A DNA stretch of 64,000 bases from a virus (IMGVR_UViG_3300049893_001984:128335-192334); one strand, 5' to 3'. Positions 28,954 through 60,678 are shown, numbered from the stretch's first letter. Notes: generated from the letters alone by a model not told the origin. A program made the numbers and translations.

Positions 28954-29451
28954 TTACGGCACAAACTCCTCGTTAACCTGCGCTATTCTTTTTGTTGTCG
29001 AAAAGGTTTGGTCATACGGAGAGAAGAGAATCCTCCCGCCATGCCGCAGCACTGCGCACTCTTCTGGCAGTTGCTTACCTTCATACTCCGAACCCTTAAC
29101 GTAAAGACGTGGCTTATATAGCTCTATTGCTGTTTCCGGTGTGTCATCTGTGTCGCCAAGGATAAAGACCTCGTCAACACACCAAAGACTGTACAACATC
29201 TCTCGTCTTACGGAGGCAGGCCATCTTGGTCTGTCTACCCCTTTCAATCTCCTTACGCTTGCATCTGAGTTTATTACTGCAATTAAAGAAATATTGTTTT
29301 GAGCTCCAAACACATCTATTCCTTTTGATTTCGCCCATTTTAGTGTTCTGACATGCCCTGGATGTAGTAGATCAAAACACCCAGCGCACATCACACTTAT
29401 GTCCTGACTAAGCATCAGTGCCGCTCTCCTTCTCTTCTGGTTTAAAGTCAA
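28954..29451 (-). CDS. HldC/RfaE2-like nucleotidyltransferase (heptose-1-phosphate adenylyltransferase family)
   Basis: GCFDLLHPGH, INSDASVRRLKG..RP, YVKGSEY, FSTT. Alternative start 29415. Ends EEFVP. Confidence 0.88.
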   Translation of the reverse strand: MTLNQKRRRAALMLSQDISVMCAGCFDLLHPGHVRTLKWAKSKGIDVFGAQNNISLIAVINSDASVRRLKGVDRPRWPASVRREMLYSLWCVDEVFILGDTDDTPETAIELYKPRLYVKGSEYEGKQLPEECAVLRHGGRILFSPYDQTFSTTKRIAQVNEEFVP

Positions 29452-29755
29452 ACGCTATATCCTTTTGAATCCTGTTTTTAGAGTGGAACAGGTCGTGCAG
29501 CAGCTGTGACACTCTGATAGCCGAGAGCACATAGGCGGGAGTATTTATGTCATATAAGTGTAGGACGACCAACAGCAGACCAGTCCAGTGGCTAAGACAA
29601 AACGCGCACAGGAGCAGGTCTGAAATAAAACCGCCCCGCGCTTCTAACCATGCGCGGGGCTTTTCAAATATTGAACCGTGTTTGAATGTCTCAACAGCTT
29701 GCCAGTTTGCCAGAGCTATTATCAGCAAACTGGGCAGGTAGCTACCGCTGGACAA
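29408..29755 (-). CDS. DUF1360-like membrane protein
   Basis: LANWQAVE...IFEKPRAW...LLLCAFCLSHW. Confidence 0.7.
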   Translation of the reverse strand: MSSGSYLPSLLIIALANWQAVETFKHGSIFEKPRAWLEARGGFISDLLLCAFCLSHWTGLLLVVLHLYDINTPAYVLSAIRVSQLLHDLFHSKNRIQKDIAFDFKPEEKESGTDA

Positions 29756-29961
29756 GGTATGTCTCCCTTGTGTGGCACACGATCTTTCTCCTCAATCGTG
29801 TACACTCTGTTACCGGGCTTATCCGGTGGTATCAACGCAGGCAGAGGCACAACTGGACGAAGCTGTACATGACTGTTGTTGACGGCGTAACGGGGCACGT
29901 GACGCTCGGATAAGAATATGCGCTGGCGCTGGAGGAAGGCCATTGACCCTTGTGAAAGCAT
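29722..29961 (-). CDS. Hypothetical protein
   Basis: Start reassigned to ATG 29961 (MLSQGS) to avoid overlap with terminase. Confidence 0.5.
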   Translation of the reverse strand: MLSQGSMAFLQRQRIFLSERHVPRYAVNNSHVQLRPVVPLPALIPPDKPGNRVYTIEEKDRVPHKGDIPCPAVATCPVC

Positions 29962-30011
29962 GGTTTTTCTCCTATGGTATGCTGCCGTAATGATAAGGAG
30001 AATAAAACCGT

Positions 30012-31823
30012 ATGTCCACACAAACCATGGCAAGCACCAGAGATCTAATTCTTTCTGGTAGCTCAAAGCCATCTGATATTTTGAAGGCTATGAGTGAACT
30101 GCTGCACAAGCAGCCCCACACGCTGGTACCTCTTCTAGGTCTTCTGTCTATTCGTGGTAAACCGTACACGCTAAACAGACATTTCAGCATGGAGCCCTTG
30201 TATAAGCTAGCACTCCCCAAACAGTCGTTATGGAAGTGCGGCCGTCAGGTTGGTAAATCAGCGTCATTGGCCAGCTCGGGTATTCTTAGGGCAGCTGGCA
30301 CGTCAGATATCAACATGCTCTACTGCACCCCCCGGTATGAACAGATACGACGTCTGTCTACCAACTATGTGCGCCCATTTATTAACAACTCCCTTGTCAA
30401 ACACCTTCTAGTGGACGAGAGCTGTACTCAGCACGTCTTACAGCGGTCTTTCCTCAACCGCTCGACGTTGTACTTCTCTTTTGCCTTCCTGGACGCCGAT
30501 CGTATCCGTGGACTTTTCACAGATATTAACAACATCGACGAAACCCAGGATATGGACTTTGAATTCTTGCCGATCATCCAGGAGTGTATGTCGGCAAGTG
30601 ATTACGCTATAACTATTTACTCGGGCACGCCAAAAACGCTCGACAACACCATTGAAGCACTTTGGCAGGACTCCACAAAGGCCGAATGGGTTGTCCCTTG
30701 CCAGGCCTGTGGTTACTGGTCCATGGCAAGTATCCACGCCGATCTTATGAAGATGATAGGCAAGGATGGGGTTGTATGCGGACGCTGTTCAAAGCTGATT
30801 AACCCAGCTATTGGCCATTGGCACCATACGGACAAGTCCAAGACTGACTTCCATGGATTCCATGTGCCACAGATTATCCTACCTGTGCACTACTCTAACC
30901 CAGAGAAGTGGTACGAGCTGCTTTCCAAGCGTGATGGGAAAAAGAACTACTCATCCAGCAAGTTTTTGAACGAGGTGCTGGGAGAATCCGCCGACTCCGG
31001 TGTGAAACTCATTACAGTAACGGACATTAAGGAGGCTTCTGACCTTGGCGTCAACGAGTTTAACGGAGCCATGCTTGATAGGTTCAGGGAGCGTTGTCCG
31101 TATCGTGTTATGGGCGTAGACTGGGGCGGTGGCGGCAAAGACCAGGTGTCGTTCACAACAATTGCACTTGTAGGCATGACAGCCACAGGCAAGATCGAGT
31201 GTCACTATTGTTTCAGGTTTCACTCGGGCTATGCCCATGACGACGAGGCCAGGTCAATCCTGAAAATGTTCAGGGAATCTGGTTGCCAGTTCCTTGCTCA
31301 TGACTTTGGTGGGTCTGGATCTGTACGTGAAACCCTGCTCATACAGTCTGGGCTGCCCATGGATCGTATTATGAACTTTATGTACGTCCGGGCATCTGCC
31401 AGAAACATGGTGCATTGGCATCCGCCCCCGGAAGGCGAAATCCGTGGATACTATGCGCTGGACAAGGCGAGAAGCCTCGTGCTACAGGCCACGGCCATGA
31501 AGTCCAAAATTATCAGGCTACCTGAATATGAGTCGAGCCGGAATGTAACATCTGACCTCTTGGCCTTGATGGAAGATAAGCACGAGATGCCAGGCGGCGC
31601 CGACGTTTACCTTGTGCGCAAACAACCAAAGCTTTCTGACGACTTTGCGCATGCCCTTAACTATGCCTGTATATGTCTGTGGCACACGAACGATGCTTAC
31701 CCAGACTTGTCACAGATCGTTGGTATGAAGCTTTCGCAAGAACAGCTTCAGTTTTCAAATCCGCCTAACGCATTTAGGTCAGATGATTATGAACCAACCA
31801 CGAGAGACAGGTACGCGGACTAG
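30012..31823 (+). CDS. Terminase large subunit
   Basis: Walker A KCGRQVGKS, Walker B NIDETQD, SGTPK, RNase-H MGVDWG, DDFAHA. Confidence 0.9.
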   Translation: MSTQTMASTRDLILSGSSKPSDILKAMSELLHKQPHTLVPLLGLLSIRGKPYTLNRHFSMEPLYKLALPKQSLWKCGRQVGKSASLASSGILRAAGTSDINMLYCTPRYEQIRRLSTNYVRPFINNSLVKHLLVDESCTQHVLQRSFLNRSTLYFSFAFLDADRIRGLFTDINNIDETQDMDFEFLPIIQECMSASDYAITIYSGTPKTLDNTIEALWQDSTKAEWVVPCQACGYWSMASIHADLMKMIGKDGVVCGRCSKLINPAIGHWHHTDKSKTDFHGFHVPQIILPVHYSNPEKWYELLSKRDGKKNYSSSKFLNEVLGESADSGVKLITVTDIKEASDLGVNEFNGAMLDRFRERCPYRVMGVDWGGGGKDQVSFTTIALVGMTATGKIECHYCFRFHSGYAHDDEARSILKMFRESGCQFLAHDFGGSGSVRETLLIQSGLPMDRIMNFMYVRASARNMVHWHPPPEGEIRGYYALDKARSLVLQATAMKSKIIRLPEYESSRNVTSDLLALMEDKHEMPGGADVYLVRKQPKLSDDFAHALNYACICLWHTNDAYPDLSQIVGMKLSQEQLQFSNPPNAFRSDDYEPTTRDRYAD

Positions 31824-31831
31824 CTGATAGT

Positions 31832-31868
31832 AAAAGAAAAAGCACACGCCTTTTAGGGCGTGCGCTTT
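31832..31868 (-). terminator. Intrinsic terminator at convergence with terminase
   Basis: Minus strand GCGCACGCC/GGCGTGTGC (one G-U) followed by TTTTTCTTTT. Confidence 0.7.
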
Positions 31869-31894
31869 AACCTGCAGGGGAAACTTCCCCCTGC

Positions 31895-32254
31895 TCAACT
31901 CTTTGCCCGCGTGAAATGGTCGGCGGGCGCCGACATGGGAGGAATTACTGCGTCGTCTTTCGGAGTCCGAAGGCCCTGCGCCTTCTTCATCCGTTCGACG
32001 TGCTCCGCGTGTTCCTCCGAACGACGCTGAGCTTCGTGCTGCATGCGTTGCGAGTGCTCGTCACTGAGCTCCTGCGAACGCTTCAACACTGCTGAGGCGA
32101 GCAACGGCACAACCGCCGTTGCCATATCTTTAACTCCAGAAAGTACTGCCAGCTGCAGTTCTTTCTGTCCCTTGACTTGCTCGGCAAGGGCACCGATTGC
32201 GTTGCTCATTGTCTTTTGCGAGACAACGAGCCCTTCTTTTCTTTTCTTTCCCAC
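31895..32254 (-). CDS. Hypothetical protein
   Basis: 119-aa ORF. Confidence 0.6.
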   Translation of the reverse strand: MGKKRKEGLVVSQKTMSNAIGALAEQVKGQKELQLAVLSGVKDMATAVVPLLASAVLKRSQELSDEHSQRMQHEAQRRSEEHAEHVERMKKAQGLRTPKDDAVIPPMSAPADHFTRAKS

Positions 32255-32647: not shown

Positions 32648-33356
32648 CCCGTTTGTGTGTGTTTCCACACTCCGTGGACTATATCATCGCCATACACTTT
32701 TCAGTGTTTAGGCGTCGGGAGCTTATGCGGTTATTAAGAGGACTTAACCTCTCCGCTAGTCTCTGCACCTTCCGCCGGTGTACCGGCGGCTCGGCTCAGT
32801 GTTGCCGTGTTTAAACCATACTTACGTGCCCATTTGCGAACAGCGTTGTCTGATACGCCAAAAAGCTTTCCAACAGAAACGACCGAGTTTTCACTCAGCA
32901 GCCTCTGCAAGCGTTCTTTTGATGGCCATTCAACCTTTCGCTGTTTGTTTCTGTAACACCCTTCAGAACAAAACTGCTTCTGCTTGTTCTGTAAGGTGTG
33001 ACCGCAAATACCGCACAGTTTTGGTTGTTTAAACGACGGGTTCACTGAATTCACCCGATTCATCCTATAGCTTTCGCATATAGGCGCACCAGAATTCATC
33101 CAAGCGTGGATCTTTGAGTGCTGGTCTGCGCTAACCACAAGGAGATTCTCTATCCTGTTGTTAGCTCTATCCCCATCTAAATGGTGCACAATCTCATCAT
33201 CACGGATAGACCGGCCTAGGTCTTTTTCCATGATAAAGATGTGTTCATAAACATAACCAAGCCAGTTGGCAGACTTCATTGCCTTTGGGTGGTCTGGTTT
33301 ATAAACAAGTCTGTACCCATTTAGAAACCTCACGCTTTTACTGAATTCTTTCATTG
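32648..33356 (-). mobile_element. Group I self-splicing intron (IC3, Azoarcus tRNA-Ile type), 709 nt
   Basis: P1 CTCAT/GTGAG with U-G at the splice site, P3 TCGGG/CCCGA, P4 TCAGTG/CACTGA, P7 GACTA/TAGTC, P8 GCGG/CCGC, P9 GTGTG-GAAA-CACAC, terminal G before AATCC. Confidence 0.93.
32734..33354 (-). CDS. Intron-encoded HNH homing endonuclease (HNH + Zn finger + HTH)
   Basis: YEH...VHHLDGDRANNRIENL...H..IH, CGIC..CSEGC, SVGKLFGVSDNAVRKWARK. ATG 33354 is 2 nt into the intron. Confidence 0.9.
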   Translation of the reverse strand: MKEFSKSVRFLNGYRLVYKPDHPKAMKSANWLGYVYEHIFIMEKDLGRSIRDDEIVHHLDGDRANNRIENLLVVSADQHSKIHAWMNSGAPICESYRMNRVNSVNPSFKQPKLCGICGHTLQNKQKQFCSEGCYRNKQRKVEWPSKERLQRLLSENSVVSVGKLFGVSDNAVRKWARKYGLNTATLSRAAGTPAEGAETSGEVKSS

Positions 33357-33400
33357 ATGAGTCCCTCGCTCTCACCGCTGAGCTACACGCCCCCTAAACA

Positions 33401-41566: not shown

Positions 41567-41917
41567 TCACTCCTTTTTAATCGGTGGGGTTAATCTCCTA
41601 CCTGTGTTACGCTCGACGGTTACAGCTCTGTCGTCCCAAAGCTCCACCATGTCATAATCCTTGCAGGAGGTCACCTCCAGCTCCTTACCGATATGTTTCG
41701 TGCACCACTGCCGTATGTTATACTGCTCCGTGTGCCATTGCTTACTGGAGAGGCGCGCAGTAAAAATACGCACCTCTATGCCCCTGGACAACCACATCTT
41801 AACGCGGTCGACCATTTCTTTCACAGGTGGCCCTATCCCGAACTCCTCTTCCTTTGTGTCGTCTGCCAACGTCCCATCCAAGTCAACTCCAACCCATCCC
41901 ATGATCACCTCCGTCAC
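41567..41917 (-). CDS. HAD-family phosphatase (PNKP phosphatase-like)
   Basis: VGVDLDGTLA, IFTAR, KD..M.ELWDDRA. Confidence 0.8.
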   Translation of the reverse strand: MTEVIMGWVGVDLDGTLADDTKEEEFGIGPPVKEMVDRVKMWLSRGIEVRIFTARLSSKQWHTEQYNIRQWCTKHIGKELEVTSCKDYDMVELWDDRAVTVERNTGRRLTPPIKKE

Positions 41918-42258
41918 GGTACTAACTCTTGAATGACACCAGGCATTACATCCAACCTCAGCGTTACACTGGACCTGTAATACAGGTACGCATCATTACG
42001 AGACAACTCTTGAGCCAAAAAAGATCCGTCCAGCAATTGGTACATCCCCCAGAATTTGTAGCTTTTTGGCAAATCATTTGTAGCGGGTACAGATGAAAAC
42101 CAAATTGGGTATTGTATAAACAACTCTGGGCTGACTTCACACTCTTCAGGCTTCCGGATTCGTCCGAGTGTGTAAACTTTCTCACCGGCGCTAGGTAGTA
42201 ATCGACGCGAGTTCCACCTAACGATTGGTGCTGTAAACGATCTTTTCGCTCGTGCCAT
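41914..42258 (-). CDS. Hypothetical protein, ends QELVP
   Basis: 114-aa ORF. Confidence 0.6.
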   Translation of the reverse strand: MARAKRSFTAPIVRWNSRRLLPSAGEKVYTLGRIRKPEECEVSPELFIQYPIWFSSVPATNDLPKSYKFWGMYQLLDGSFLAQELSRNDAYLYYRSSVTLRLDVMPGVIQELVP

Positions 42259-43859: not shown

Positions 43860-44237
43860 TCAAGGAACAAAGTTTTCACTGACTAGAACTTCAAAAAGTT
43901 CTCTGAGCTTTTCCGGCGGCAGAAGTGCATCCGAGGGACTTAAAAAAACAAGCTTCCCATTTCCAAACAAGAAATATACTCTTTTAGAGTAGTTAAAACT
44001 GGCCATAAACAACTGCACTTTGTCCTGCGGGTGTATAAGTACGCTTAAAGATCCACCTGGGCTCAATGAGCTCTTTGGTTCACAATCACCCACCTTAGTT
44101 AATATTGGGTCGCAGTACGCGTTGAACTTATTGACCATCCCCACGCTTATTTGTACTGCAGCGTTGCTACTATTACTGAAGGCAACGATACAGTTAAGCT
44201 TTGCCGTCAGGTACACCGACAATTCGCTGCTAGCCAT
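43860..44237 (-). CDS. Hypothetical protein, ends ENFVP
   Basis: 125-aa ORF. Confidence 0.6.
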   Translation of the reverse strand: MASSELSVYLTAKLNCIVAFSNSSNAAVQISVGMVNKFNAYCDPILTKVGDCEPKSSLSPGGSLSVLIHPQDKVQLFMASFNYSKRVYFLFGNGKLVFLSPSDALLPPEKLRELFEVLVSENFVP

Positions 44238-45373: not shown

Positions 45374-45748
45374 TTATGCTTTGGCTTTTAGATACTTCAT
45401 CGCCTCAAGGGCCGCTCTGCATACAGCATGCGGCAAGGACTTGGGGTCCAAAGCTGTGCACTCCTTTTCCCTGTTTTTAAGGATGAATGTTGCTCTCACC
45501 CCTGTCTTACTGTTCGTCATCCTGACCAGCCAGCCCATCTCCTTCATGGTGTCAATAACCTGCAAGAACTTCGACCCATCGGGGTTGGCAAAATCAGGTA
45601 TGCACTCTTTGTAACCAGCTCCAGGCGCAGACAGTATGGGCCACTTATAGCTATCCCATATGTCCTTCTGGATAAAACCTGGTCTTTCCAATCGCCGCCA
45701 TCCCATGACGGAAATAGCGACGGCTTCATTTAGCGCTTCGTCTGTCAT
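45374..45748 (-). CDS. Phage ABA-sandwich (Phage_ABA_S-like) protein, paralog 1
   Basis: LNEAVAISVMGW...LPHAVCRAALEA. Confidence 0.7.
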   Translation of the reverse strand: MTDEALNEAVAISVMGWRRLERPGFIQKDIWDSYKWPILSAPGAGYKECIPDFANPDGSKFLQVIDTMKEMGWLVRMTNSKTGVRATFILKNREKECTALDPKSLPHAVCRAALEAMKYLKAKA

Positions 45749-48502: not shown

Positions 48503-48574
48503 TAGACCCAGGGGGAATCGAACCCCCATCTGCCGATTAGAAGTCGGCGGCTTTATCCGTTAAGCTATGGGTCA
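48503..48574 (-). tRNA. tRNA-Arg (TCT), CCA not encoded
   Basis: TGACCCATAGCTTAACGGATAAAGCCGCCGACTTCTAATCGGCAGATGGGGGTTCGATTCCCCCTGGGTCTA. Confidence 0.88.
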
Positions 48575-49772: not shown

Positions 49773-50081
49773 TCAAAGCCTTTTCACGACCTTTGGGTCA
49801 ATTTCCTCCTGTATCTGTTGCACTAGTTTTTCCCAGCAGGCGATCGATCGTTTAAATTCGCCATTGGGTTCTGAAAGGTTGGTAAGTGCGCGCCAGCACC
49901 AAATAGCCAGTTCCAGTTTGTCTGGCAGCAAAAGGTCGTCCCAGTGCACTTTTTCAAGATGTTTGTAACGGTCACGACCCCGGCTTGAAAGCACACAGCA
50001 GACGCGATCGGCAGGGCACCAGTTTGGCAAGGTACAGCCAGGGGGCAGCTCTTTTTTCCAGTTCGGCCATGTTCCGTACAT
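49773..50081 (-). CDS. LPxGCxLP family protein
   Basis: WKKELPPGCTLPNWC. Confidence 0.6.
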   Translation of the reverse strand: MYGTWPNWKKELPPGCTLPNWCPADRVCCVLSSRGRDRYKHLEKVHWDDLLLPDKLELAIWCWRALTNLSEPNGEFKRSIACWEKLVQQIQEEIDPKVVKRL

Positions 50082-50362
50082 CAGCCCTCCTGTTTATTCT
50101 TCTCAATGAGGCGCCGTATCTGGCTAGCCAGGCACCTGCTGGAATGAGGCCCTTCCAGCAGGTTCAAGGCAGCAGATATCTCTTGCTCACACCGTTCCAG
50201 TTTTTTCTCCAGCTCTTCAACTTTTGCAAACAGATGTGGCTCGCAGGAACCAACACAGTGCTGCCAATCACCCGGTGTTGATGACCCATCCGGGTTAAAC
50301 TTCAGTCGCTGCCACCCGTCTAATTTTGTTACCTCTCCTCCGCACATATGGCACTTATTCAC
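50081..50362 (-). CDS. Zinc-ribbon plus coiled-coil hypothetical protein
   Basis: GTG start at 50362 (GTGA overlap), CHMC...HC..SC. Confidence 0.55.
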   Translation of the reverse strand: MNKCHMCGGEVTKLDGWQRLKFNPDGSSTPGDWQHCVGSCEPHLFAKVEELEKKLERCEQEISAALNLLEGPHSSRCLASQIRRLIEKNKQEG

Positions 50363-50787
50363 GGTACAAACTCCGTAGTTACGTTCGTAAGCGTTGTAGG
50401 ACTCCAATCTTTCCACAGTCTCACATATTCAGCTGCCCTGGCGTGAACATGCGAAAACGCGTTTCTCCGGTACTGCAGGTAGAGGGAGCTAAGTCCTCCG
50501 ACCCTTGCCATTTCTGCCTCTACTTTCTCTATGTTTTTTAACGCCAACATTTCGTCCTCTTCCCAGCATTCGATGCAGGCGTTTTTCAACTCCAGCATCT
50601 GCTCGGGGCTTGCTGTATTCACGCAGATAGGTTTTTCACCTTCTTTTTTAAATTCAACAAGCCCATTGATTACATCAAAGCTAAACTGTGCATCCCCCAG
50701 CGGTACAGGGAGGTCATTAATAAATACGCACGCACGCCCAATAACAGCGATGGGATTAGACGGATCGAAAGCCATGTTCTCGCTCAT
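50359..50787 (-). CDS. Hypothetical protein, ends TEFVP
   Basis: 142-aa ORF. Confidence 0.65.
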   Translation of the reverse strand: MSENMAFDPSNPIAVIGRACVFINDLPVPLGDAQFSFDVINGLVEFKKEGEKPICVNTASPEQMLELKNACIECWEEDEMLALKNIEKVEAEMARVGGLSSLYLQYRRNAFSHVHARAAEYVRLWKDWSPTTLTNVTTEFVP

Positions 50788-51191
50788 GGTACAAATTCCT
50801 CCTGAGGCGAAACCTGGGCGGGTGCCTGTCTATAAGCTGGATCTGGTGGCTGCCATTGGAGGCAAACCTGGGCATACTGTGCAGCCCTTGAAATGTTTAA
50901 CGCCAATGTACCCTGCGCCCTGTCATTGCGTGGATCGGCCAACTCTCCTGCGATCATCTGCTGCGTCAGCTCACGATGCAGGTCCATCCATACTCTGTAA
51001 CCAACGCTAGAACCTATATATGGAATGTTTCTAATAAACCCTTGCCCCACTAAGTAGACACGAAGAGAACCATCGCCCATTCTAAGCACCTCAAACATAC
51101 GATCCAGCACATCGCCGGGGTAATGGTTGTTTACCGGAATTGGAAAACCCTCAACAATTTGGGGTGCTATTACTTGTTCCGCGTAATTCAT
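50784..51191 (-). CDS. Hypothetical protein, ends EEFVP
   Basis: 135-aa ORF. Confidence 0.65.
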   Translation of the reverse strand: MNYAEQVIAPQIVEGFPIPVNNHYPGDVLDRMFEVLRMGDGSLRVYLVGQGFIRNIPYIGSSVGYRVWMDLHRELTQQMIAGELADPRNDRAQGTLALNISRAAQYAQVCLQWQPPDPAYRQAPAQVSPQEEFVP

Positions 51192-51203: not shown

Positions 51204-51527
51204 TTAGGGGACAAGCTCAGCTTCAACGAAAGAATTTGACCTCTCCTTTTCTAAAATCAAATCCAGCATTCTTTTCCACGACGCGTTATTGTGAAACTCC
51301 TTAATCAGGCGGGTGGCTATAATCCTCTTCTCCGCAAGACTAAGGTCTTTCCATAAAACGATAAGGTTTTTACCCAGCTGTCCTACCTTTGGATAAAACC
51401 TACGCTGTTCCAGTGGGCCAAGCAGCCAATGCATTTTGTAGGGTAGACACCAAAAGGGTAAGACACAGGTTGGCGGCAATTCCTTCTCCCATTTCTCCCA
51501 TTCCTTCTCGTCCGCAGTATTGCTCAT
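51204..51527 (-). CDS. LPxGCxLP family protein, ends AELVP
   Basis: WEKELPPTCVLPFWC. Confidence 0.65.
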   Translation of the reverse strand: MSNTADEKEWEKWEKELPPTCVLPFWCLPYKMHWLLGPLEQRRFYPKVGQLGKNLIVLWKDLSLAEKRIIATRLIKEFHNNASWKRMLDLILEKERSNSFVEAELVP

Positions 51528-51568: not shown

Positions 51569-52735
51569 TTAGAAGGCTACCTTACGTATTGCATCGATCT
51601 TTGCCTGCAGTGCGCGAACATCTTTCTCCAGTGTATTGATATATCCTGTTTTTTGGTAACAGGGCTGACAGTACTTTTGACTCCCATCGCACTTTTCGTA
51701 TTGGGCTGGCACCAGTTTGAGAGTCTCAATATGCTCTCGGCACTCCCTTAACTGACGTTGGGCGCCAATAAGATCCTCACGCATTCGCTTCAACTCCTTT
51801 GCCAGGTCCTCGCTGACCTTCCGCTCCTCTTTCAGGTCATGCTCCAGCACGTGACTGTTCGCCTTCTCCCTCTCCAAGTCTTCACTGCACCTGTGCAGAG
51901 TTTTCAACTGCTCTTTCAGGTTCTGCTCCAGCGTGTGGCTCTTAGCCTTCTCCTTCTCCAAGTCTTCACCGCGCCTGTTCAGGGCTGTCAACTGTTCTTT
52001 GCATTCGAAAGTAGAAATTTCCAATTTTGCCCGCAGCCTCTCATTCTCATCAGCCAGGACGTGGCTATTGCGCATCAACTCATCAATGGATTTGTTCCTG
52101 CTGTCCATGAGTTCCCGCGTCTTCTTTAGCTCATCCTTGAGCGCTAAGATCTGCTGTTCGGCTGTGTTTTGCTTGTACTCCTCCCAGGCCAGCCCAGGTT
52201 CAACTTCCTTTTTCTGGCTCACCTCGGGGTCGTTCTGCGTCTTGCCCTTGTAATACTCCACGGTCGACTCCAGCTTTTTCACACGGTCATCCAGTTTTTC
52301 GTTCTCCAGGATCAAGTTGCGCAACCCCGCTAGACTGGACTTCAACCTTTCCAGGGTTTTGGGCGACGTGTCCGTGCTGATCCTTTTCCGGAGCTCGTCC
52401 AGCATGATCTGCAGCCCTTCGTTGGGGGCGACGAGCAGTACACCCTGGGCATCAGCGGCTTCGAAGAACTTCCACAGCGCGGTGGCCCAGGCTGAGACCT
52501 CGGTGTTCTCCGACCTGGCTTCGCCTTTTACCCCCGTATAGGAGTCCGAGATCGTCACTTTCCATGACTGGTGGGGTATTGCCTGGTACTCGGCGTAAAT
52601 ACTCAGGTTCAGGTTGACCAGCCTTTCCCTGACCCGAGTGACCCAGTCGGGTGGGGTGGTGTTGGCTGCGAAAGGGCGTTTCACGGGTTCGGGCCAGAGC
52701 CTGCACAAAACTTTTTCAACTTTGATGGTTTCCAT
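51569..52735 (-). CDS. Long coiled-coil protein with 28-aa internal duplication
   Basis: 84-bp tandem copies at 51827-51910 and 51911-51994. C-terminal CEKC...CQPC. Confidence 0.75.
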   Translation of the reverse strand: METIKVEKVLCRLWPEPVKRPFAANTTPPDWVTRVRERLVNLNLSIYAEYQAIPHQSWKVTISDSYTGVKGEARSENTEVSAWATALWKFFEAADAQGVLLVAPNEGLQIMLDELRKRISTDTSPKTLERLKSSLAGLRNLILENEKLDDRVKKLESTVEYYKGKTQNDPEVSQKKEVEPGLAWEEYKQNTAEQQILALKDELKKTRELMDSRNKSIDELMRNSHVLADENERLRAKLEISTFECKEQLTALNRRGEDLEKEKAKSHTLEQNLKEQLKTLHRCSEDLEREKANSHVLEHDLKEERKVSEDLAKELKRMREDLIGAQRQLRECREHIETLKLVPAQYEKCDGSQKYCQPCYQKTGYINTLEKDVRALQAKIDAIRKVAF

Positions 52736-52761: not shown

Positions 52762-53046
52762 TTAGGGAACAAGTTCCACGGTTGTGGAAACCTGGGGTTT
52801 CGGTTCGTGATGGTTGTAAATCAGGGAATCTTCGCAAGCATTAATTGCCTCGGAGAAGGTGGGGTAGCAAGGGCTGACTTCCTTTGATTCCGTCAACCCC
52901 CACTTTATCCAGACCCACCCGTGTTGCCTTAAAACAATATCCGCGATGGGTTCGCCTTTCTTTAGGAGAATTGCACCACCTCCGGAAATTCTCCAAGCGT
53001 AATGCTCAACCCTGTCAAGAGTTGATTGTCTAACCAGCACTTCCAT
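52762..53046 (-). CDS. Hypothetical protein, tandem paralog, ends VELVP
   Basis: VEHYAWRIS...YPTFSEAINACED...KPQVSTTVELVP. Confidence 0.7.
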   Translation of the reverse strand: MEVLVRQSTLDRVEHYAWRISGGGAILLKKGEPIADIVLRQHGWVWIKWGLTESKEVSPCYPTFSEAINACEDSLIYNHHEPKPQVSTTVELVP

Positions 53047-53078: not shown

Positions 53079-53396
53079 TTAAGGTACAAGTTCCACGGGG
53101 GTGGAAACCGGGGGTTTAAAGTCTCGAGACTTGTTGGGTCCCATGGCGCAGACATTGCCGTAGATCATGGCGTCTTCACAGGCGTCCATGGCTTTGACTA
53201 TGGTTGGGTAAGAGTCAATGCATACAGCTCCGTAGTGAGGTTCCACCCAACTTATCCAAGTCCACAATCTGTTTATTATCAAAACTTCCGCTATGTTGTT
53301 TCCATTCCTTTGCAGCTTGGCACCACTTGGGGACATCTTCCATATATAATGCTCGATCTCATTCAGGTTCATGGAGGGTTTAACTACCTCGCTCAT
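53079..53396 (-). CDS. Hypothetical protein, tandem paralog, ends VELVP
   Basis: IEHYIWKMS...YPTIVKAMDACED...KPPVSTPVELVP. ATG 53396 with GGAGG SD. Confidence 0.7.
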   Translation of the reverse strand: MSEVVKPSMNLNEIEHYIWKMSPSGAKLQRNGNNIAEVLIINRLWTWISWVEPHYGAVCIDSYPTIVKAMDACEDAMIYGNVCAMGPNKSRDFKPPVSTPVELVP

Positions 53397-53407: not shown

Positions 53408-53653
53408 TTATGGGATTAACTCGAGAGCCGCTGCAGGGTAGAATTTGTCTTTTACAACCGCCATGCAGTTTGCTTTGACATCCTCTACGTCCTTTGACAT
53501 AAATGGCTGGTATACACCTTTGAATGGGTAGTAGTACCATTTCCAATAAAGATCAGATCCTCTGACTACAACAGCTATATAGTTGTCACCTTCGTATAAG
53601 AAAAACGTTTGGTTCGACAAACCTAGATAAGCGGATCTCCATGTTAACTCCAC
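53408..53653 (-). CDS. Hypothetical protein, ends LELIP
   Basis: GTG start behind AAGGAG. Confidence 0.65.
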   Translation of the reverse strand: MELTWRSAYLGLSNQTFFLYEGDNYIAVVVRGSDLYWKWYYYPFKGVYQPFMSKDVEDVKANCMAVVKDKFYPAAALELIP

Positions 53654-53799: not shown

Positions 53800-54774
53800 A
53801 TGTACCTAAAGTACCTTATTACACAGGCTGTACAGGGGTCCAACCTCACCAAGGTTGCTGCAAACGTTTCAACACTGGCCCAGGTTGCCAAAGCCAATAA
53901 CGTCCCTCTCGTTGGTGATTGGCGTTATGCAGCACGCCTTATGGCCAAGAAAACAAGAGCTACACCAGAAGGACAGGCTCACTACGACAAAGTGCTGGGG
54001 TTCTCTACGCCTGAACAGCGGGCGACTATTGACCAACTGAGGAAGCAATCGCTCACACCAAAAGGACGGCTTGAAAACTGGAAAGCAACGATAGGTGACG
54101 CCTCTGAGGCAAATTTAGCCCTGGAAGCAGCCACCCCGAGAATTCACCGTAATAAACAGCGTGAATTTGGTATTGTAAAGAACACCGGAGCGCCTGAGCT
54201 TGGGGTTATAGGGGTTAGAGGACGTGTGGCTATGCCTATCCACGGCGAAACCGGTAATCTTGGCAGCAATGAACTCGGACCTCTATTACACGTAGAGAGG
54301 ACACTCCACACTCATCCAGATATTTTAACGGACCGGCGTATCCGACAGGCTATGGAAAGTGCCTCACCCTTCCGCAAGGGCGAACTGGGGGTAGGTTTTC
54401 CGTCTGGACCGCTTGATTTCCCAGGTGTAGCGAAGTCACCGGAATACTTAAGACGTGAAAAATTCCTTCAACAAAAAATGGACGCCGGTGAACACGATCA
54501 TGCTATTGAATTTTTCAATTTGAAATCCAACCCCCAATACGATTTACCAGTAGCTAAAACACCAGACCAAGCTATTGACACATATAAAAAGATGCGGATA
54601 GGACCTAACACACAAGGTGGCGGCGATATGGCCATGCTAAACTCGCCATTCATGGCTACGCACACAGTTGTAACGCCTCACACAAACCAAGAGACTGTGT
54701 TCAAGGGAAGCCAAGGCCAACTTCGCCGGATGTACTTCCAAAAACAAAACCCAGGTCAGCCTATCGGCACTTAG
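53800..54774 (+). CDS. Solitary plus-strand protein with JAB/MPN-like C-terminal domain
   Basis: QREFG ... LHTHP ... FPSG ... GDM, GGAG SD. Confidence 0.5.
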   Translation: MYLKYLITQAVQGSNLTKVAANVSTLAQVAKANNVPLVGDWRYAARLMAKKTRATPEGQAHYDKVLGFSTPEQRATIDQLRKQSLTPKGRLENWKATIGDASEANLALEAATPRIHRNKQREFGIVKNTGAPELGVIGVRGRVAMPIHGETGNLGSNELGPLLHVERTLHTHPDILTDRRIRQAMESASPFRKGELGVGFPSGPLDFPGVAKSPEYLRREKFLQQKMDAGEHDHAIEFFNLKSNPQYDLPVAKTPDQAIDTYKKMRIGPNTQGGGDMAMLNSPFMATHTVVTPHTNQETVFKGSQGQLRRMYFQKQNPGQPIGT

Positions 54775-55189
54775 CGCATGTGTACTGCACATCATGTATG
54801 CCTGCGCACATACAAATATTGTCGCGCTGCTCCTCAAGGGCAGCTAGCGCTGCTCGGCATACGGTACGCGGCATTGTTTCGTCGTGCTCGTATCGTGTTC
54901 CACTTAACTTTTCGTGCATAAAACCAGCAGCCCATTTATATTTAGGATCAGTCATGCCGGTCATGCGTAGGGCAGGCTTAAATCCTAAGGCCTCCATACG
55001 TTCAACAACCGGACGAACGCAATCCCAATTTTTATCATTAATGAAGTCGCCATGCTCTTCATCAAGAAACCCCATCTTGTCGTACCAACCAGCTGGAAGG
55101 TCATCGGGCTCTTGGTAAGACCAGCCCATGACCTTCTCTGCTACCTCTTTGTTGAGCTCTTCGTCAGTCATGTCTTTTAAGTATTTCAT
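54761..55189 (-). CDS. Phage_ABA_S-like protein, paralog 2
   Basis: LNKEVAEKVMGW...MPRTVCRAALAAL. Confidence 0.7.
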   Translation of the reverse strand: MKYLKDMTDEELNKEVAEKVMGWSYQEPDDLPAGWYDKMGFLDEEHGDFINDKNWDCVRPVVERMEALGFKPALRMTGMTDPKYKWAAGFMHEKLSGTRYEHDETMPRTVCRAALAALEEQRDNICMCAGIHDVQYTCAKCR

Positions 55190-55319
55190 TTTACCCACCC
55201 CGCAACCCAGGATATGATCAAGGTGGCACCGCACCCGAAGACATACCCAGCCATCCCAGGTAGCCCGAGCAAGCCCCAGGCTACCCCCGTAGTTACAAAC
55301 AACGTCATGACCATCTTGC

Positions 55320-56278: not shown

Positions 56279-56695
56279 TTAGGGGACAATTTCTTCTGAA
56301 CTTTCAACCCGTACTGGCTGTTCCTGGCTGTCACTTTCTGGTGCCTGCTGGTGGTAGGCATTTAAAACAAACCTTTCGTGATCGTGCCAGAACGTTTTCC
56401 AATTACGGTACTGTTCGCCTATCCGGTAGTTTTGCCCAGCGTGCGTAAGTGTTTCTAATGGTAGTTCCAACCACCAAAGCGCACAGCGAGCAATACAACC
56501 GGACCTTTCAAACGGTGATAGATTGGCCCAAGGTATCTTCAACGTAGTTATCCCACACATAAACCAAACTTGGCCACCTTCATTACCACACCAGAAGACC
56601 CCCGGAGGAAGAACACACCCGTCGGGGATCTGCACATTTGTGTAGTTTACCATCCCTACGAACCTAGACGCCTCAGACCTCTGCTCTTCATCCAT
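56279..56695 (-). CDS. LPxGCxLP family protein, ends EEIVP
   Basis: IPDGCVLPPGVFWC...WFMCG...GCIARCALWW. Confidence 0.65.
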   Translation of the reverse strand: MDEEQRSEASRFVGMVNYTNVQIPDGCVLPPGVFWCGNEGGQVWFMCGITTLKIPWANLSPFERSGCIARCALWWLELPLETLTHAGQNYRIGEQYRNWKTFWHDHERFVLNAYHQQAPESDSQEQPVRVESSEEIVP

Positions 56696-56705: not shown

Positions 56706-57059
56706 TCAAGGTACTATCTCGCCGACGACCTTCCCAGGTGCTGTGTAACATTTTGCCAGTTCCCTATCAACTTGTATGGAAAGCCAACTATGCAGAGCTG
56801 CCCAGTTCTTATGAATTTCATTAACTTCAGTGTAGTTATGCTTTGTCATATCCTTCTCAGCAAACATACCATACTCATAGACCTGCCTATTCCACCATAG
56901 AGTACAGCGCGCAACGCACCCAATCTGCTGGTGTTTTGACATTGTAGAATAAGCTACTTTAAAGTTGTTTTCCCCACAAACAAACCAGGCATCCTCTTCG
57001 TCTTGACTACACCACAACTCCCCTATAGGCAGCACACACCCAACTGGAAGCTTGTTCAT
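56706..57059 (-). CDS. LPxGCxLP family protein, ends GEIVP
   Basis: LPVGCVLPIGELWC...WFVCG...GCVARCTLWW. Confidence 0.65.
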   Translation of the reverse strand: MNKLPVGCVLPIGELWCSQDEEDAWFVCGENNFKVAYSTMSKHQQIGCVARCTLWWNRQVYEYGMFAEKDMTKHNYTEVNEIHKNWAALHSWLSIQVDRELAKCYTAPGKVVGEIVP

Positions 57060-57292: not shown

Positions 57293-57563
57293 TGCTATCC
57301 TCCGACAAGTAATTGTTGCAGGTGCCTTGCGCTGAGACCATGCGCGGCTTAGCCCAGTCATCCCAGGCTTTCTCAATTGCATTTACCTCTTCGTCAGGGG
57401 TGTCCATCCGGATGAAGAAACCTTCACCCATCAACACCGATCCTGACTTCGGTCTTGGCGGTGCGTTGAAACCGCAGAACAGCACGGTCTCACAATCGTA
57501 CTCAGCTATACGTACGCAATGCTTACAGTTATGGCACCCGTCCTGCATCTTGTATCCGTCCAT
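57279..57563 (-). CDS. CxNC family, paralog 3
   Basis: YKMQDGCHNC...FC...W...GTCNNY. Confidence 0.65.
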   Translation of the reverse strand: MDGYKMQDGCHNCKHCVRIAEYDCETVLFCGFNAPPRPKSGSVLMGEGFFIRMDTPDEEVNAIEKAWDDWAKPRMVSAQGTCNNYLSEDSNAGK

Positions 57564-57569
57564 CGCAGT

Positions 57570-57932
57570 TTACTCCTTCTCAGGGAAGTCAAACTTCAAG
57601 CCGTTGTCCTCTGCATATTTCCACAAACAATCTCTCCACTCCGAGACCATCCCTCTGTCGTGTATATTCTGTAAGCCAGCCAGAAAATCCCAGTCTTCTT
57701 CCGTGACTACGTCCAAGGCTTTTGAAAGGGGAGAATTAGTGATCAGCAGGTCAGTTATACCCCAGCCTTCCATTTCCTCCTTGTATAGCTCATCAGGGAT
57801 CAAACATCCGATCGCGCAGCGCCTACCTGTGTCAGGATCCCGGTAGGCACACCTATTATCAACTCCAATGCACCTTACATTCTGGGTGAGTAGGTGCTCT
57901 GCGACTTTGTTAAAGACAGCCTGCTTGTCCAT
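57570..57932 (-). CDS. Hypothetical phage protein (CAIG.LIPDELY family), paralog 1
   Basis: DKQAVFNKVAEHLLTQ...CAYR...CAIGCLIPDELY. Confidence 0.7.
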   Translation of the reverse strand: MDKQAVFNKVAEHLLTQNVRCIGVDNRCAYRDPDTGRRCAIGCLIPDELYKEEMEGWGITDLLITNSPLSKALDVVTEEDWDFLAGLQNIHDRGMVSEWRDCLWKYAEDNGLKFDFPEKE

Positions 57933-57969
57933 TCTTGTAAGTCCTTATGCCTACAAGGCGTTATGTGAT

Positions 57970-58164
57970 TCAACCATCATAAACGCCCAATTGACGCCAG
58001 CCACGTCGGCCGCGCACCATGTGGCATTTCTCCGTAATGTGATCCGGATGACGCTCACCACATTCCGGACAAACGTCTATGTCTTTCCATTTTTCACCAG
58101 GAACCGTGTTACCTATGCACTTGGGCGATGACCGTAGTACAAAATCCTCAAACGGCTGGTGCAT
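57970..58164 (-). CDS. Small zinc-ribbon protein
   Basis: CPEC...H...C. Confidence 0.5.
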   Translation of the reverse strand: MHQPFEDFVLRSSPKCIGNTVPGEKWKDIDVCPECGERHPDHITEKCHMVRGRRGWRQLGVYDG

Positions 58165-58519
58165 AGTGTTTTCCCTTGCCCTTTAAACCTTTGCCGGTTT
58201 TCAGCCTACGCCAGATGCGTAGCTCTTCTCTTACAAAAGCCAGAGTCTTACGCCGTAATAAGGAACGTGAGTGCAGTCGACCTGAGTCGTCGTACATAAA
58301 CAAAATACAGTCGCTTGTACCGCATCCATCCTTCAGCGGACCTGTTTGTACAAGGAAACAAGACAGCTGATGCGCCAGTGTCTCCTTTGCTAAAATACGG
58401 GCAGTTTCATTTTCTATGTCCTCTGCCCACTCGTAGCCGTACTCAATTAGAGTCAGGACTTTTTCCAACTCCCGTTTGAACCTATCACCGATAGGCATTA
58501 TTGAACCTCCTCTGCCCAC
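58148..58519 (-). CDS. Hypothetical protein
   Basis: 123-aa ORF. Confidence 0.55.
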   Translation of the reverse strand: MGRGGSIMPIGDRFKRELEKVLTLIEYGYEWAEDIENETARILAKETLAHQLSCFLVQTGPLKDGCGTSDCILFMYDDSGRLHSRSLLRRKTLAFVREELRIWRRLKTGKGLKGKGKHYAPAV

Positions 58520-58878
58520 TGTGCCGGGAAAACCAGCTTGTGCCTGTCGGCCAACAACTTCAACTCGTACACCCAGGTTACAGGGTCTTTCTCGTCATGA
58601 AGCTGTTGAAGCTCCATCAGGAAATTCGTGTCATCGAAAAAATTCTTTATCTCCAGATGGGCATACAGCTTCGGGTTAGTCTGTATTAAAACAGTGGCCT
58701 GCTTGCCTTCCATGCTCGGGGTGTACAACTCGTCTGGGATCAAAACTCCAATTGCACACTTCAACCCATCATCGCCCCTGTAAACACAGCTGGCGATGAA
58801 CGCCTCTTCAGTGACACTTCGCTTGCCTTGCTTCAACAGGTGATTTGCCACTGTTGTAAACACAGCTTGTTTATCCAC
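58498..58878 (-). CDS. CAIG.LIPDELY family, paralog 2
   Basis: DKQAVFTTVANHLLKQ...CVYR...CAIGVLIPDELY, GTG start. Confidence 0.7.
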   Translation of the reverse strand: MDKQAVFTTVANHLLKQGKRSVTEEAFIASCVYRGDDGLKCAIGVLIPDELYTPSMEGKQATVLIQTNPKLYAHLEIKNFFDDTNFLMELQQLHDEKDPVTWVYELKLLADRHKLVFPAQWAEEVQ

Positions 58879-58944
58879 GTAGTTACCCCTTGCATTTAGT
58901 AACGTGAACGTTAAACTTGGCGAAGTTCCCACCTTCGCCAAGCA

Positions 58945-59112
58945 TCAATCTTCCAGCGTGTACGTCACCTTGTACTTCCTGCCGCCAAAGCCAAGGCTGT
59001 TTGCCCCTCCACGTGTACTCCTGCGCAGCTCAGCCAGGCGGCGCTGTAGCCTCTTTCGATCGCCTTCAGCAATCAACTCCTTCTTGCCGTTGGCCATCCT
59101 GTATAGCTTCAT
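58945..59112 (-). CDS. Small basic 55-aa protein (not in ORF track)
   Basis: MKLYRMANGKKELIAEGDRKRLQRRLAELRR...YTLED, starts at the repeat cassette ATG. Confidence 0.6.
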   Translation of the reverse strand: MKLYRMANGKKELIAEGDRKRLQRRLAELRRSTRGGANSLGFGGRKYKVTYTLED

Positions 59113-59140
59113 TCTCGTAACTCCTTACGCCGCAAAGGCG

Positions 59141-59506
59141 TTATAGGAAATGTTCGATTATGTCGGCGATCTGACTGAAGGTAAAACCATTGTCATTCAG
59201 AAATGCCAACGAAATCTGTTGATTGTACTTGTCTTTCAACCCCGGAATTGCCCCCATGGGATTAAGACCGGTCTTTATGCATAAGTCGAGGGGCAGGACA
59301 TCGTACTCGTCTATGTAATACGTGTTTCCATCTTTCTCGCCAAGATGCCACTTGATCGGGTCGTTCAGGTCGCAAAGAACACCCAAACAGCAATACTCAC
59401 TTTCGTAGTTCTTCAGCAACCCTTTGCCCTGAGGGTACTGTCCAGATCGCAGCGCTTCGACCCATCTCTGTTTGAGTTCCGGACTTAACTTCACCTCGTT
59501 AACCAT
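59141..59506 (-). CDS. Hypothetical phage protein
   Basis: WVEALRSGQYPQG...CCLGVLCDL...NDNGFTFSQIADII. Confidence 0.7.
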   Translation of the reverse strand: MVNEVKLSPELKQRWVEALRSGQYPQGKGLLKNYESEYCCLGVLCDLNDPIKWHLGEKDGNTYYIDEYDVLPLDLCIKTGLNPMGAIPGLKDKYNQQISLAFLNDNGFTFSQIADIIEHFL

Positions 59507-59539
59507 TCACGTAACTCCTTACGCCACAAAGGCGTTATG

Positions 59540-60073
59540 TTACTCCCTGTCAGGCTTCCTGCAGTATCGCTCCCGCTTGAGCGCCTCCAACTCATCGAGC
59601 GTATGCAACAACCATTCCTCATTACGCCAGCACCTGTCTTTGGACCAGGCTTGTGCGGCTAACACAACAAGCCCAGTAATGCGCTCTTCCAACGATGACC
59701 GCCTTACACTGCGTCGTATGGCAGCCCTTGACATTGATTTATACTTCTTCTGGTTAAGGTGCCACTTGGCGTAATCAACTTCTTCGCCGATATCCGGATG
59801 GTGTGGTTTATCTTTAACCTCAACCGGACGCTTATCCTGCGTGCCACTGCAATCGCGTTCTGGCTGCGTTACAGCGGCTTTAACCTCAAGAGGCTGACTT
59901 ACTAGGGCTAAGCTGTCAGAGCTCTCCACAGGCTTACGGAGCGGGGTATTCCGGTTTTCTGTAAAAAGCCCCGCGACGAGACTCCGCATTACTGCCCTAA
60001 TCTCGGCATGACGCTCTTCAAGCGTTGGGCCTCCTGCTGGGCTACTATTTACTTCCATGGTTATGACCTCCAA
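59540..60073 (-). CDS. Hypothetical protein
   Basis: 177-aa ORF, GGAGG SD. Confidence 0.55.
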   Translation of the reverse strand: MEVITMEVNSSPAGGPTLEERHAEIRAVMRSLVAGLFTENRNTPLRKPVESSDSLALVSQPLEVKAAVTQPERDCSGTQDKRPVEVKDKPHHPDIGEEVDYAKWHLNQKKYKSMSRAAIRRSVRRSSLEERITGLVVLAAQAWSKDRCWRNEEWLLHTLDELEALKRERYCRKPDRE

Positions 60074-60087
60074 ATTTGAATTTCACG

Positions 60088-60113
60088 TAACTCCTTGATG
60101 CATCAAGGAGTTA
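60088..60113. repeat. 26-bp perfect palindrome
   Basis: TAACTCCTTGATGCATCAAGGAGTTA. Confidence 0.9.
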
Positions 60114-60342
60114 TGGAACATTTGCTTGGCCTTTTGGCGTGAGCTGCGTCAGCAGCCATGGTTAGCAGCATGCGTATATTCACCAGCTGCCCAACAGAGT
60201 GGCTTTCGGCAACAGCTTCACCTATCTCTTTCAGCTGGTCGATGGTCAGCTGCTTTTCATCACCATTTTCACAGAACGCTGAGTCAGCCGCACACACGGC
60301 CGCTTTCAACGCCTGTACGATGCAGTATTGCGCTCTTGTCAT
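60103..60342 (-). CDS. Hypothetical protein
   Basis: 79-aa ORF. Confidence 0.55.
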   Translation of the reverse strand: MTRAQYCIVQALKAAVCAADSAFCENGDEKQLTIDQLKEIGEAVAESHSVGQLVNIRMLLTMAADAAHAKRPSKCSITP

Positions 60343-60372
60343 TTCTCACCTTTCTCATAACTCCTTATGGCA

Positions 60373-60678
60373 TCAAGGAATTATGTCATCTGATTTGCTT
60401 TCGTTGCCAATGCTTAGCAGCCCGCGCCGCAGCTCTGGTGGCAACTCTATAACTTCGCGTGCTACGACATTTGCTGCCTTTTCGTAGTGATTACAGACGA
60501 AATGAAGGGCAACATCTCTGTCCTTCGCCCATTCCTCGAATGACAGGGCATTCCAGTATGCAGGCATGGGCGGCGCCTCGTACCTGCAGTACAGCTTGGA
60601 ATCATCAGGCTCATCAGAACGGCATGAGTGTCTGCAATTGAAACAGCAGGGTTGCTCCCTGAATCCCTCTGGCGGCAT
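60373..60678 (-). CDS. CxNC family, paralog 4, ends DDIIP
   Basis: FREQPCCFNC...YC...W...VCNHY. Start 60678 (or 60813). Confidence 0.6.
   Translation of the reverse strand: MPPEGFREQPCCFNCRHSCRSDEPDDSKLYCRYEAPPMPAYWNALSFEEWAKDRDVALHFVCNHYEKAANVVAREVIELPPELRRGLLSIGNESKSDDIIP

Follow-up and report, generated by a model that had tools for sequence, protein, structure and literature searches.

Among the 255 genes called on the whole 192,334-bp genome of this uncultured phage, 12 minus-strand genes for small proteins finish in [E/D/N]-[L/F/I]-[V/I]-P-stop, a C-terminal tag that is abbreviated below as E-Φ-V-P. Judged by how often this pattern ([EDN][LFI][VI]P) occurs inside the proteins, 0.08 gene ends of this type are expected, which corresponds to a Poisson P of 1.7e-22, and the enrichment is still given by P = 4e-16 if each of nine independent families is counted as one event. 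The ending [VI]P alone was observed at 15 gene ends versus 1.56 expected. A six-frame scan of the genome for the pattern [EDNQ][LFIMV][VI]P-stop revealed 13 sites, 12 of which are the tagged gene ends and one of which belongs to an ORF of 7 codons, and in a de novo k-mer scan with a reduced-alphabet triple scan the E-Φ-V-P motif was the only strong C-terminal signal. All 12 ORF ends listed in an earlier, sequence-only reading of this DNA were recovered at their coordinates on the minus strand, and the enrichment over a genome-wide null, which that reading had set as a test, is present; the tag is therefore real and far above chance level. Our literature searches gave no description of a shared C-terminal phage tag like E-Φ-V-P.

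In the following, the window is the whole stretch of 64,000 nt that was analysed; genes are located on its minus strand and are designated by their first coordinate. The only carrier with orthologues elsewhere is 28954 (28954..29451), which encodes an HldC-like cytidylyltransferase according to its Pfam match (PF01467) and ends in ...AQVNEEFVP-stop; its start codon is uncertain, being either a TTG or the ATG at 29394. Orphan proteins are encoded by 41914 (41914..42258, 114 aa, ...GVIQELVP-stop with TGA), 43860 (43860..44237, 125 aa, ...LVSENFVP-stop), 50359 (50359..50787, 142 aa, ...NVTTEFVP-stop), 50784 (50784..51191, 135 aa, ...AQVSPQEEFVP-stop), and 53408 (53408..53653, 81 aa, ...AAALELIP-stop). 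For 41914, neither a Pfam or PHROG match nor a homologue among the relatives examined was found. The product of 50359 is the sole member of its own family among 5.8 billion proteins, and its ESM Atlas model (pTM 0.70) has no named relatives. The stop codon of 50784 and the start codon (ATG) of the following gene are overlapping (ATGA).

The remaining carriers belong to families A, B, and C. Family C comprises 52762 (52762..53046, 94 aa, ...PQVSTTVELVP-stop) and its paralogue 53079 (53079..53396, 105 aa, ...PPVSTPVELVP-stop), and these two window copies were the only full-length matches in a profile search of 1.84 billion representatives. Due to the length of the database copy P0123 (105 aa), the longer 53079 ORF reaching up to 53546 is probably an over-extension. 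Family A is represented by 56279 (56279..56695, 138 aa, with a database copy of 124 aa, ...VESSEEIVP-stop), 56706 (56706..57059, 117 aa, ...GKVVGEIVP-stop), and the distant member 51204 (51204..51527, 107 aa, ...FVEAELVP-stop). The loosest form of the tag (...SKSDDIIP-stop) is found in the Cys-rich family B protein of 60373 (60373..60813, 146 aa).

BLASTP comparisons with the tails removed, together with alignments, assign the carriers to at least nine independent families and reveal three paralogue groups, i.e., 52762/53079, 56279/56706/51204, and 60373 with three untagged paralogues. The earlier statement that several of the tagged proteins are unrelated thus holds for most but not for all of them. 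Between paralogues of only 25-45% identity the tag is kept, and it has decayed in others. In case of the family A paralogue 49773 (49773..50081), the link of which to 51204 is weak in BLASTP, alignment indicates an apparently decayed tag ...QEEIDP that is followed by the six residues KVVKRL before the stop; the family A paralogue 61147 (61147..61476) ends in ...EKEMP-stop, a degenerate or shortened tag, and QATVS was found as a further decayed form. Alignment of 28954 with its orthologues in the relatives L001, L002, and L004 shows that the tails of the latter are unrelated; the tag of 28954 is therefore a lineage-specific extension of roughly nine residues. Similarly, the tag of 60373 is situated on a C-terminal extension of roughly 30 residues, which according to an alignment is absent from its untagged paralogues 57279, 60880, and 48582. 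The tag is modular and was gained, retained, and lost among proteins.

Glu occupies position -3, counted back from the terminal proline, in 10 of the 12 carriers, the others having Asp or, solely in 43860, Asn. Position -2 is Leu, Phe, or Ile throughout, the penultimate residue is Val in 10 carriers and Ile in two, and an extended footprint is given by Val at -6 (6 of 12) and at -8 (5 of 12). Each of the four Val codons and each of the four Pro codons occurs, in agreement with the codon variation claimed before. Over the 12-nt core, the nine families show a mean pairwise identity of 7.97, compared to 7.84 +/- 0.17 after synonymous resampling (P = 0.23); the DNA is therefore conserved no more than the peptide demands. 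Selection on the tag acts at the peptide and not at the DNA, as had been proposed from the codon variation. The AF2 model of 56279, for which no fold match was found in the PDB, shows a folded core at residues 22-117 (block-mean pLDDT mostly 75-92, with one block of 57), followed by residues 118-138 including the tag as coil with a pLDDT of about 60. Residues -20 to -6 of the carriers are composed of 31% P/S/T/Q versus 21% in the proteome. Based on this single medium-confidence model and the linker composition, the tag presumably rides on a flexible tail behind a folded core.

The carriers represent 11 of the 57 genes of a hypervariable accessory arm (window 41-64 kb) and one neighbouring enzyme gene, and the description of the tag as phage-wide had to be abandoned accordingly. 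None of the structural, replication, and nucleotide-metabolism core genes is tagged, which bears out the earlier observation for the core replication genes. The DNA pattern of the tag occurs 11 times in this genome versus 0-3 times per record, which equals the control level, in 32 uncultured phage records that are related, and no comparable C-terminal motif was found in eight whole relatives (G+C 52-66%). The tag is specific to this one lineage.

All tagged genes are located at genome positions 157-189 kb, and the structural genes at about 6-80 kb. In encapsulin systems a C-terminal targeting peptide, and in T4 the N-terminal capsid-targeting sequence of the internal proteins, allow one shell or scaffold to read unrelated cargo. 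Like the tag, such cargo-loading peptides place one short terminal peptide on unrelated proteins, but their consensus is another one and the tag carriers are not found among late or head genes, whereas cargo of this kind is expected to be encoded or expressed together with the shell genes. The SSB C-terminal tip (...DDDIPF) is an acidic run ending in Pro-Phe-COOH. A terminal Phe occurs in none of the carriers, and only the end of 60373 (SKSDDIIP) is similar.

We tentatively prefer the reading that one partner recognises E-[L/F/I]-V-P-COOH as a short linear docking motif, or address label, at the C-terminus. A single reader protein, encoded by host or phage, would recognise the last four to nine residues and would grip the free carboxyl end, by which a common destination or assembly partner would be given to nine or more accessory proteins that are otherwise unrelated. 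Judged by gene order, the carriers may be early or host-takeover proteins. In Pfam searches of 57 of the 255 proteins, of which 47 are encoded in the window and 10 elsewhere in the genome, nothing recognisable as a peptide-binding protein (PDZ, TPR, clamp, ClpX, or another) was detected. It would be unusual for a known carboxylate-reading domain to have a ligand that ends in proline, as the ssrA tag, clamp-binding motifs, and the ligands of PDZ domains illustrate.

The anatomy that suggests docking, a short C-terminal motif situated on a tail and common to unrelated proteins, is equally expected of a degron by which a host or phage protease, unfoldase, or adaptor co-clears the accessory proteins, e.g., after the early phase, and the small accessory genes that carry the tag lie upstream of the replication module, which would suit such a timed removal. 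C-terminal degrons are established, as for the LAA-COOH of ssrA and the tail of MuA. By analogy to these degrons, which are read by AAA+ proteases (ClpX in the case of MuA), the tag consists of few terminal residues, is portable, and would impose a common fate. The C-motif classes of ClpX have a non-polar, LAA-like or a basic, MuA-like free C-terminus, whereas the tags carry Asn or an acidic residue at -3 and have V/I-P as their last residues; no known bacterial C-terminal degron class is matched. Furthermore, the proteins scanned did not include a Clp, Lon, or FtsH-type protein, the HldC-like metabolic enzyme is an odd target for programmed removal, and we know of no phage in which a fifth of the accessory genes encode a degron-type signal. 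We regard a degron as unlikely.

The tag might instead be a protective cap or have little function. The tails of 50784 and of 52762/53079 have a longer sequence (P/A)QVS...E-Φ-VP in common, which includes the identical DNA run CCCAGGTTTC, and thus some tails are suggested to share ancestry. Together with the existence of decayed copies, this is consistent with an uneroded 3' module that was recombined among accessory genes, or with a V-Pro-COOH end that serves as a cap against exopeptidases and tail-specific proteases. Such a cap would need neither the Glu at -3 nor L/F/I at -2 or Val at -1. Moreover, the peptide persists despite randomised synonymous sites, the distant paralogues mentioned above still have the tag, and between-family DNA identity upstream of the core is at background level. 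Both versions appear improbable.

The tag might also act on the ribosome, if ...E-Φ-V-Pro slowed peptide release at TAA or TGA and so programmed a pause that results in tagging by tmRNA, cleavage of the mRNA, or coupling to the following cistron. As in Pro-stop stalling, a C-terminal proline directly precedes the stop in all 12 carriers, and the next start codons are situated 0-25 nt past the stop, but this distance varies and is mostly independent of the tag. The exclusive use of TAA and TGA noted in the sequence-only reading was found in all 12 carriers; due to the fact that TAG is rare in the arm (10 of 57 genes), its absence from the carriers is not significant. In 41914, 50359, and 50784 the same reading had taken the tag DNA to double as Shine-Dalgarno sequence and start/stop overlap; two of the three also offer a downstream ATG, which is preceded by a good Shine-Dalgarno sequence in 41914 and by none in 50359. 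According to Hayes, Bose and Sauer 2002, as cited in PMC7246954, ssrA tagging is strongest with D, E, or P before the proline, and none of these residues occurs at the penultimate position of the carriers, which is always V or I. Conservation moreover extends far beyond the last two residues, to -3, -2, and often -6 or -8, and the tag is preceded by a variable linker; an effect in the exit tunnel fits this less well than recognition of a free peptide does. A pause is further disfavoured by a Mycoplasma pneumoniae library, in which proline in the last two residues did not significantly change expression (PMC7246954). Taken together, we consider the ribosome effect as hardly probable.

As a special case of docking, the tail could be a motif for the sliding clamp of the host, tethering the carriers to the beta clamp or competing for its cleft, which we judge to be very improbable. 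T4 gp43, gp33, and gp55 bind the gp45 clamp with their tails, and clamp-binding tails in general are tiny, often located at the extreme C-terminus, acidic or polar (e.g., Ser) and then hydrophobic, common to unrelated proteins, and known to dock these on one hub. Examples are QVELEF of Pol III alpha and QLVLGL of Pol IV, to which QEEFVP of 50784 and IQELVP of 41914 may be compared. In favour of this case, the clamp motif of B. subtilis MutL is QEMIVP and shares its IVP ending with the tag, but it is atypical and its binding as a peptide was not measurable (bioRxiv 10.64898/2026.05.27.728225). In the consensus QΦxLF or QΦxLxL, positions 1, 4, and 5 matter most (bioRxiv 10.64898/2026.05.27.728225), whereas, with the terminal proline aligned as position 6, the Gln of position 1 is found at -5 only in 50784 and is off by one residue (-4) in 41914, position 4 is L/F/I, and neither F nor L ever occurs at positions 5 (V/I) and 6 (P). 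Moreover, the phage has a family A polymerase, the tag is carried by small accessory orphans and not by known DNA enzymes or by replication or transcription factors, and a phage sliding clamp was not detected with the models searched, PF00712, PF02768, and PF00705 (bacterial beta-clamp and PCNA N-terminal models).

Returning to the docking motif, the accessory arm in which the carriers reside shares almost nothing with the relatives, the G+C content of which differs greatly, and we therefore lean towards a host-specific hub as the putative reader. E-Φ-V-P-COOH might thus, with due reserve, represent a protein address code of the phage's own, with a lineage-specific host hub as the foremost candidate for its reader, by which at least nine protein families would be handled together.

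Genome-wide gene calling with a codon-usage model resulted in 255 genes, 12 of which end in [EDN][LFI][VI]P compared to 0.08 expected from the internal frequency of this pattern (P = 1.7e-22), and P is still 4e-16 if at least nine independent families are taken as units. With these counts, the tabulation of C-terminal motifs against a null proposed by the sequence-only reading yields a clear excess, and all 12 ORF ends which that reading had listed were found again at their positions, i.e., in the minus-strand genes whose 3' (stop) ends lie at window positions 28954, 41914, 43860, 50359, 50784, 51204, 52762, 53079, 53408, 56279, 56706, and 60373 (carriers, named by these coordinates). Ends in [VI]P occur in 15 of the 255 genes versus 1.56 expected. 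Within the 192 kb, a six-frame scan for [EDNQ][LFIMV][VI]P-stop returned 13 occurrences, of which 12 are the carrier gene ends and the remaining one closes a 7-codon ORF; hidden copies of the tag accessible by frameshift or read-through were not found. When C-terminal k-mers and reduced-alphabet triples were scanned without supervision, the tag motif was also the sole strong signal. Counted from the terminal Pro as residue 0, the consensus of the last ten residues consists of Glu at -3 (10 out of 12), Leu, Phe, or Ile at -2, Val at -1 (10 out of 12), and Pro at 0 (12 out of 12), and Val is furthermore found at -6 in six and at -8 in five of the 12 carriers. A second, weaker C-terminal bias of the genome, with basic residues at -4 and -2 and Ser/Thr at -1 (7 genes versus 0.43 expected), probably reflects low-complexity basic tails.

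After removal of the last eight residues, BLASTP linked the carriers into three groups only. Family A comprises 56279, 56706, and, weakly, 51204, with the N-terminal motif ELPxGCVLPxGxxWC; family B combines 60373 with three untagged genes; family C consists of 52762 and 53079. Judged by this comparison without tails, the carriers appear to be mostly unrelated and to represent at least nine independent families, in agreement with the earlier statement that several of them are unrelated. One carrier is a PF01467 cytidylyltransferase (28954, HldC-like), and the remaining carriers match neither Pfam nor PHROG entries. Carrier homologues were searched in collections of 5.8 billion or 1.84 billion proteins; for 50359, 56279, and a family C profile (1.84 billion representatives), full-length homologues were restricted to the window's own copies. 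The sole exception in these searches is given by short repeat matches of family C, whose residues 15-36 (EHYxWxxSxxGAxL..G..IA) resemble repeats in the database proteins P0125 (3065 aa, 9 repeats) and P0126 (2143 aa, 14 repeats), and thus the small family C protein may contain one repeat unit of these very large proteins. No PDB fold match was obtained for the family A model, and no usable model resulted for family B.

The sequence-only reading had attributed the tag to selection on the peptide, and the codon variation on which it relied is real, as Val and Pro are each encoded by all four of their codons. Over the 12-nt core, the mean pairwise identity between the nine independent families is 7.97 compared to 7.84 +/- 0.17 upon synonymous resampling with genome usage (P = 0.23), and upstream of the core the identity between families does not exceed background, except for true paralogues. 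The absence of TAG stops from the carriers is not significant, since TAG terminates just 10 out of 57 genes of the accessory arm (the hypervariable window region 41-64 kb), and neither are the preferences for GTA and TTT codons. Taken from these comparisons, selection acts on the peptide and not on the DNA.

The tag further behaves like a module that, as far as paralogues and orthologues indicate, was gained, kept, and lost. In case of the cytidylyltransferase, the orthologues of three related phages have ends unrelated to the tag, and the protein of this phage carries approximately nine residues (AQVNEEFVP) after the conserved ...STTKRI. In family B, one out of four paralogues is tagged, namely on an extension of about 30 residues. 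Tagged paralogues within families A and C share only 25-45% identity, with the tag kept and the preceding linker diverging freely. Among the remaining members of family A, the ends are EKEMP, QATVS, or EEIDP plus six further residues, which look like decayed tags. The AlphaFold model of 56279 comprises a folded core (residues 22-117; block-mean pLDDT mostly 75-92, one block 57), followed by the tag-bearing residues 118-138 as coil with a pLDDT of approximately 60. Across the carriers, residues -20 to -6 are enriched in P/S/T/Q (31% versus 21% in the proteome).

On its coding strand, the genome has 11 matches to the degenerate DNA pattern GANNTNRTNCCNTRA, with 1 and 2 occurrences of control patterns, and 32 related IMG/VR records have 0-3 matches each, which equals the control pattern. 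In eight whole relatives (G+C 52-66%), for which genes were called and the unsupervised C-terminal scan was run, no comparable tag was detected but only low-complexity charged or Ser-rich ends (P 1e-5 to 1e-6 versus 1e-12 here). Relatives identified through the terminase (43-63% identity) are without the tag. These observations point to the tag as an innovation of this lineage, and literature searches brought up no description of such a tag.

The record of 192,334 bp, the final 64 kb of which form the window, is classified in IMG/VR as linear and approximately 92% complete, and nearly all genes are located on the minus strand. The phage is far from every cultured phage: neither a 7-kb segment nor an 895-aa protein had a match in the phage collection, and close relatives are absent from known phages (blastn, tblastn) and from IMG/VR (polymerase query). 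Its family A DNA polymerase (window 8000-10972, minus strand), with an N-terminal uracil-DNA-glycosylase-superfamily (UDG-like) domain and a 3'-5' exonuclease domain, shares 44-45% identity with those of the related phage genomes G002 and G003 and only about 24% with known or cultured phage polymerases. By its terminase (window 30012-31823, plus strand), which has relatives of 36-63% identity (961 proteins, 137 IMG/VR loci), the phage is assigned to a large family of uncultured phages, 160-226 kb in size. The genome bins used for host inference were mis-binned contigs under several phyla. A fused RNA polymerase of 1983 aa, consisting of beta and N-terminal beta-prime domains and an intein with a LAGLIDADG domain, is encoded at genome 60657-66608 (L109:657-6608, minus strand), and a 614-aa gene of its own at genome 55188-57032 (L108:15188-17032, minus strand), located 3.6 kb away amid presumed structural genes, encodes the C-terminal part of beta-prime (Rpb1 domain 5). 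A class II ribonucleotide reductase, ThyX, a dNMP kinase, and a 5'-nucleotidase are encoded as well. Adjoining the tagged cytidylyltransferase, a block on the minus strand (window 19493-28930) is missing from G002 and G003; it contains the NT5C-like, ThyX, and dNMP-kinase genes and genes for 623-aa and 465-aa proteins without known identity, and perhaps acts as a module for DNA modification or nucleotide salvage. A group I intron (window 32655-33111, minus strand; Rfam RF00028, 65 bits) overlaps a 213-aa ORF (32734-33375), and since no tRNA was called by ARAGORN in window 31-36 kb, any host tRNA there must be intron-split.

Eleven carriers are found among the 57 genes of the accessory arm, which has almost nothing in common with the relatives, and the enzyme at 28954 is the only carrier outside it. 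None of the structural, replication, and nucleotide-metabolism core genes among the 255 called genes is tagged, which extends the earlier remark on core replication genes. The tag is thus one of the accessory arm plus a single enzyme, and its former description as phage-wide is not retained. The replication and structural modules follow the arm downstream on the same strand, an order that suggests its early expression; as scans for sigma-70-type promoters and terminators in the arm remained at shuffle level, "early" is read from gene order only. The arm also contains three dispersed paralogues with a Phage_ABA_S (ABA sandwich) domain (45374-45748, 54761-55234, and 62977-63348, minus strand), all without the tag, and a single tRNA gene (48503-48574, minus strand; Rfam RF00005, 65 bits) lies in its middle among small genes.

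The anatomy of the tag is best fitted by a short linear motif that a single partner recognises as free C-terminal peptide, a reading which we prefer tentatively. This partner, the reader, would recognise the free end of all carriers. In favour of docking are the conserved end of 4-9 residues, the variable P/S/T/Q-enriched tail preceding it, the independence from the fold, the purifying selection on the peptide, and the restriction to one lineage and to an arm presumed to deal with the host. The fate shared by the carriers could be localisation, assembly, or destruction. Pfam scans of 57 of the 255 proteins (47 of the window, including 37 scanned in addition to the carriers, and 10 of the rest of the genome) revealed no recognisable peptide-binding domain, and a beta-clamp or PCNA was not detectable in the phage with PF00712, PF02768, and PF00705. 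A comparative search for the reader fails because 140 out of 255 genes lack a homologue in the eight relatives, too many for one candidate. Located exactly between two tagged triplets (50359, 50784, 51204 and 52762, 53079, 53408) is the largest gene of the arm (51569-52735, minus strand), an orphan encoding a 388-aa protein with an N-terminal globular domain, a coiled coil of about 220 residues, and a Cys-containing C-terminus.

The main rival to docking is a degron, which we regard as rather unlikely. A ribosome pause in termination at Pro-stop is improbable: strong contexts were reported for D, E, or P as penultimate residue (PMC7246954), whereas the tag has V or I, its conservation runs upstream of the last two residues, and the explanation is weakened by a library study in one species, in which Pro among the last two residues caused no significant expression change (PMC7246954). 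A mere protective cap or drifting 3' module, to which we assign a similarly small chance, leaves the conserved E-Φ-V unexplained. Binding to the host clamp, which the C-terminal position and the resemblance to the MutL motif QEMIVP might suggest, is very improbable, since the tags lack the terminal L/F and mostly also the key Gln, and the MutL peptide itself showed no measurable binding (bioRxiv 10.64898/2026.05.27.728225).

Small accessory genes of large phages are mostly without known function, and the shared tag makes a dozen of them accessible at once. Once identified, the reader would indicate the destination or target of all carriers and could expose a host hub targeted by the phage; a portable peptide of 4-9 residues that redirects proteins could also be a useful tool. 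Should other large phages also carry comparable tags specific to their lineages, these may represent a general way of organising host-takeover proteins.
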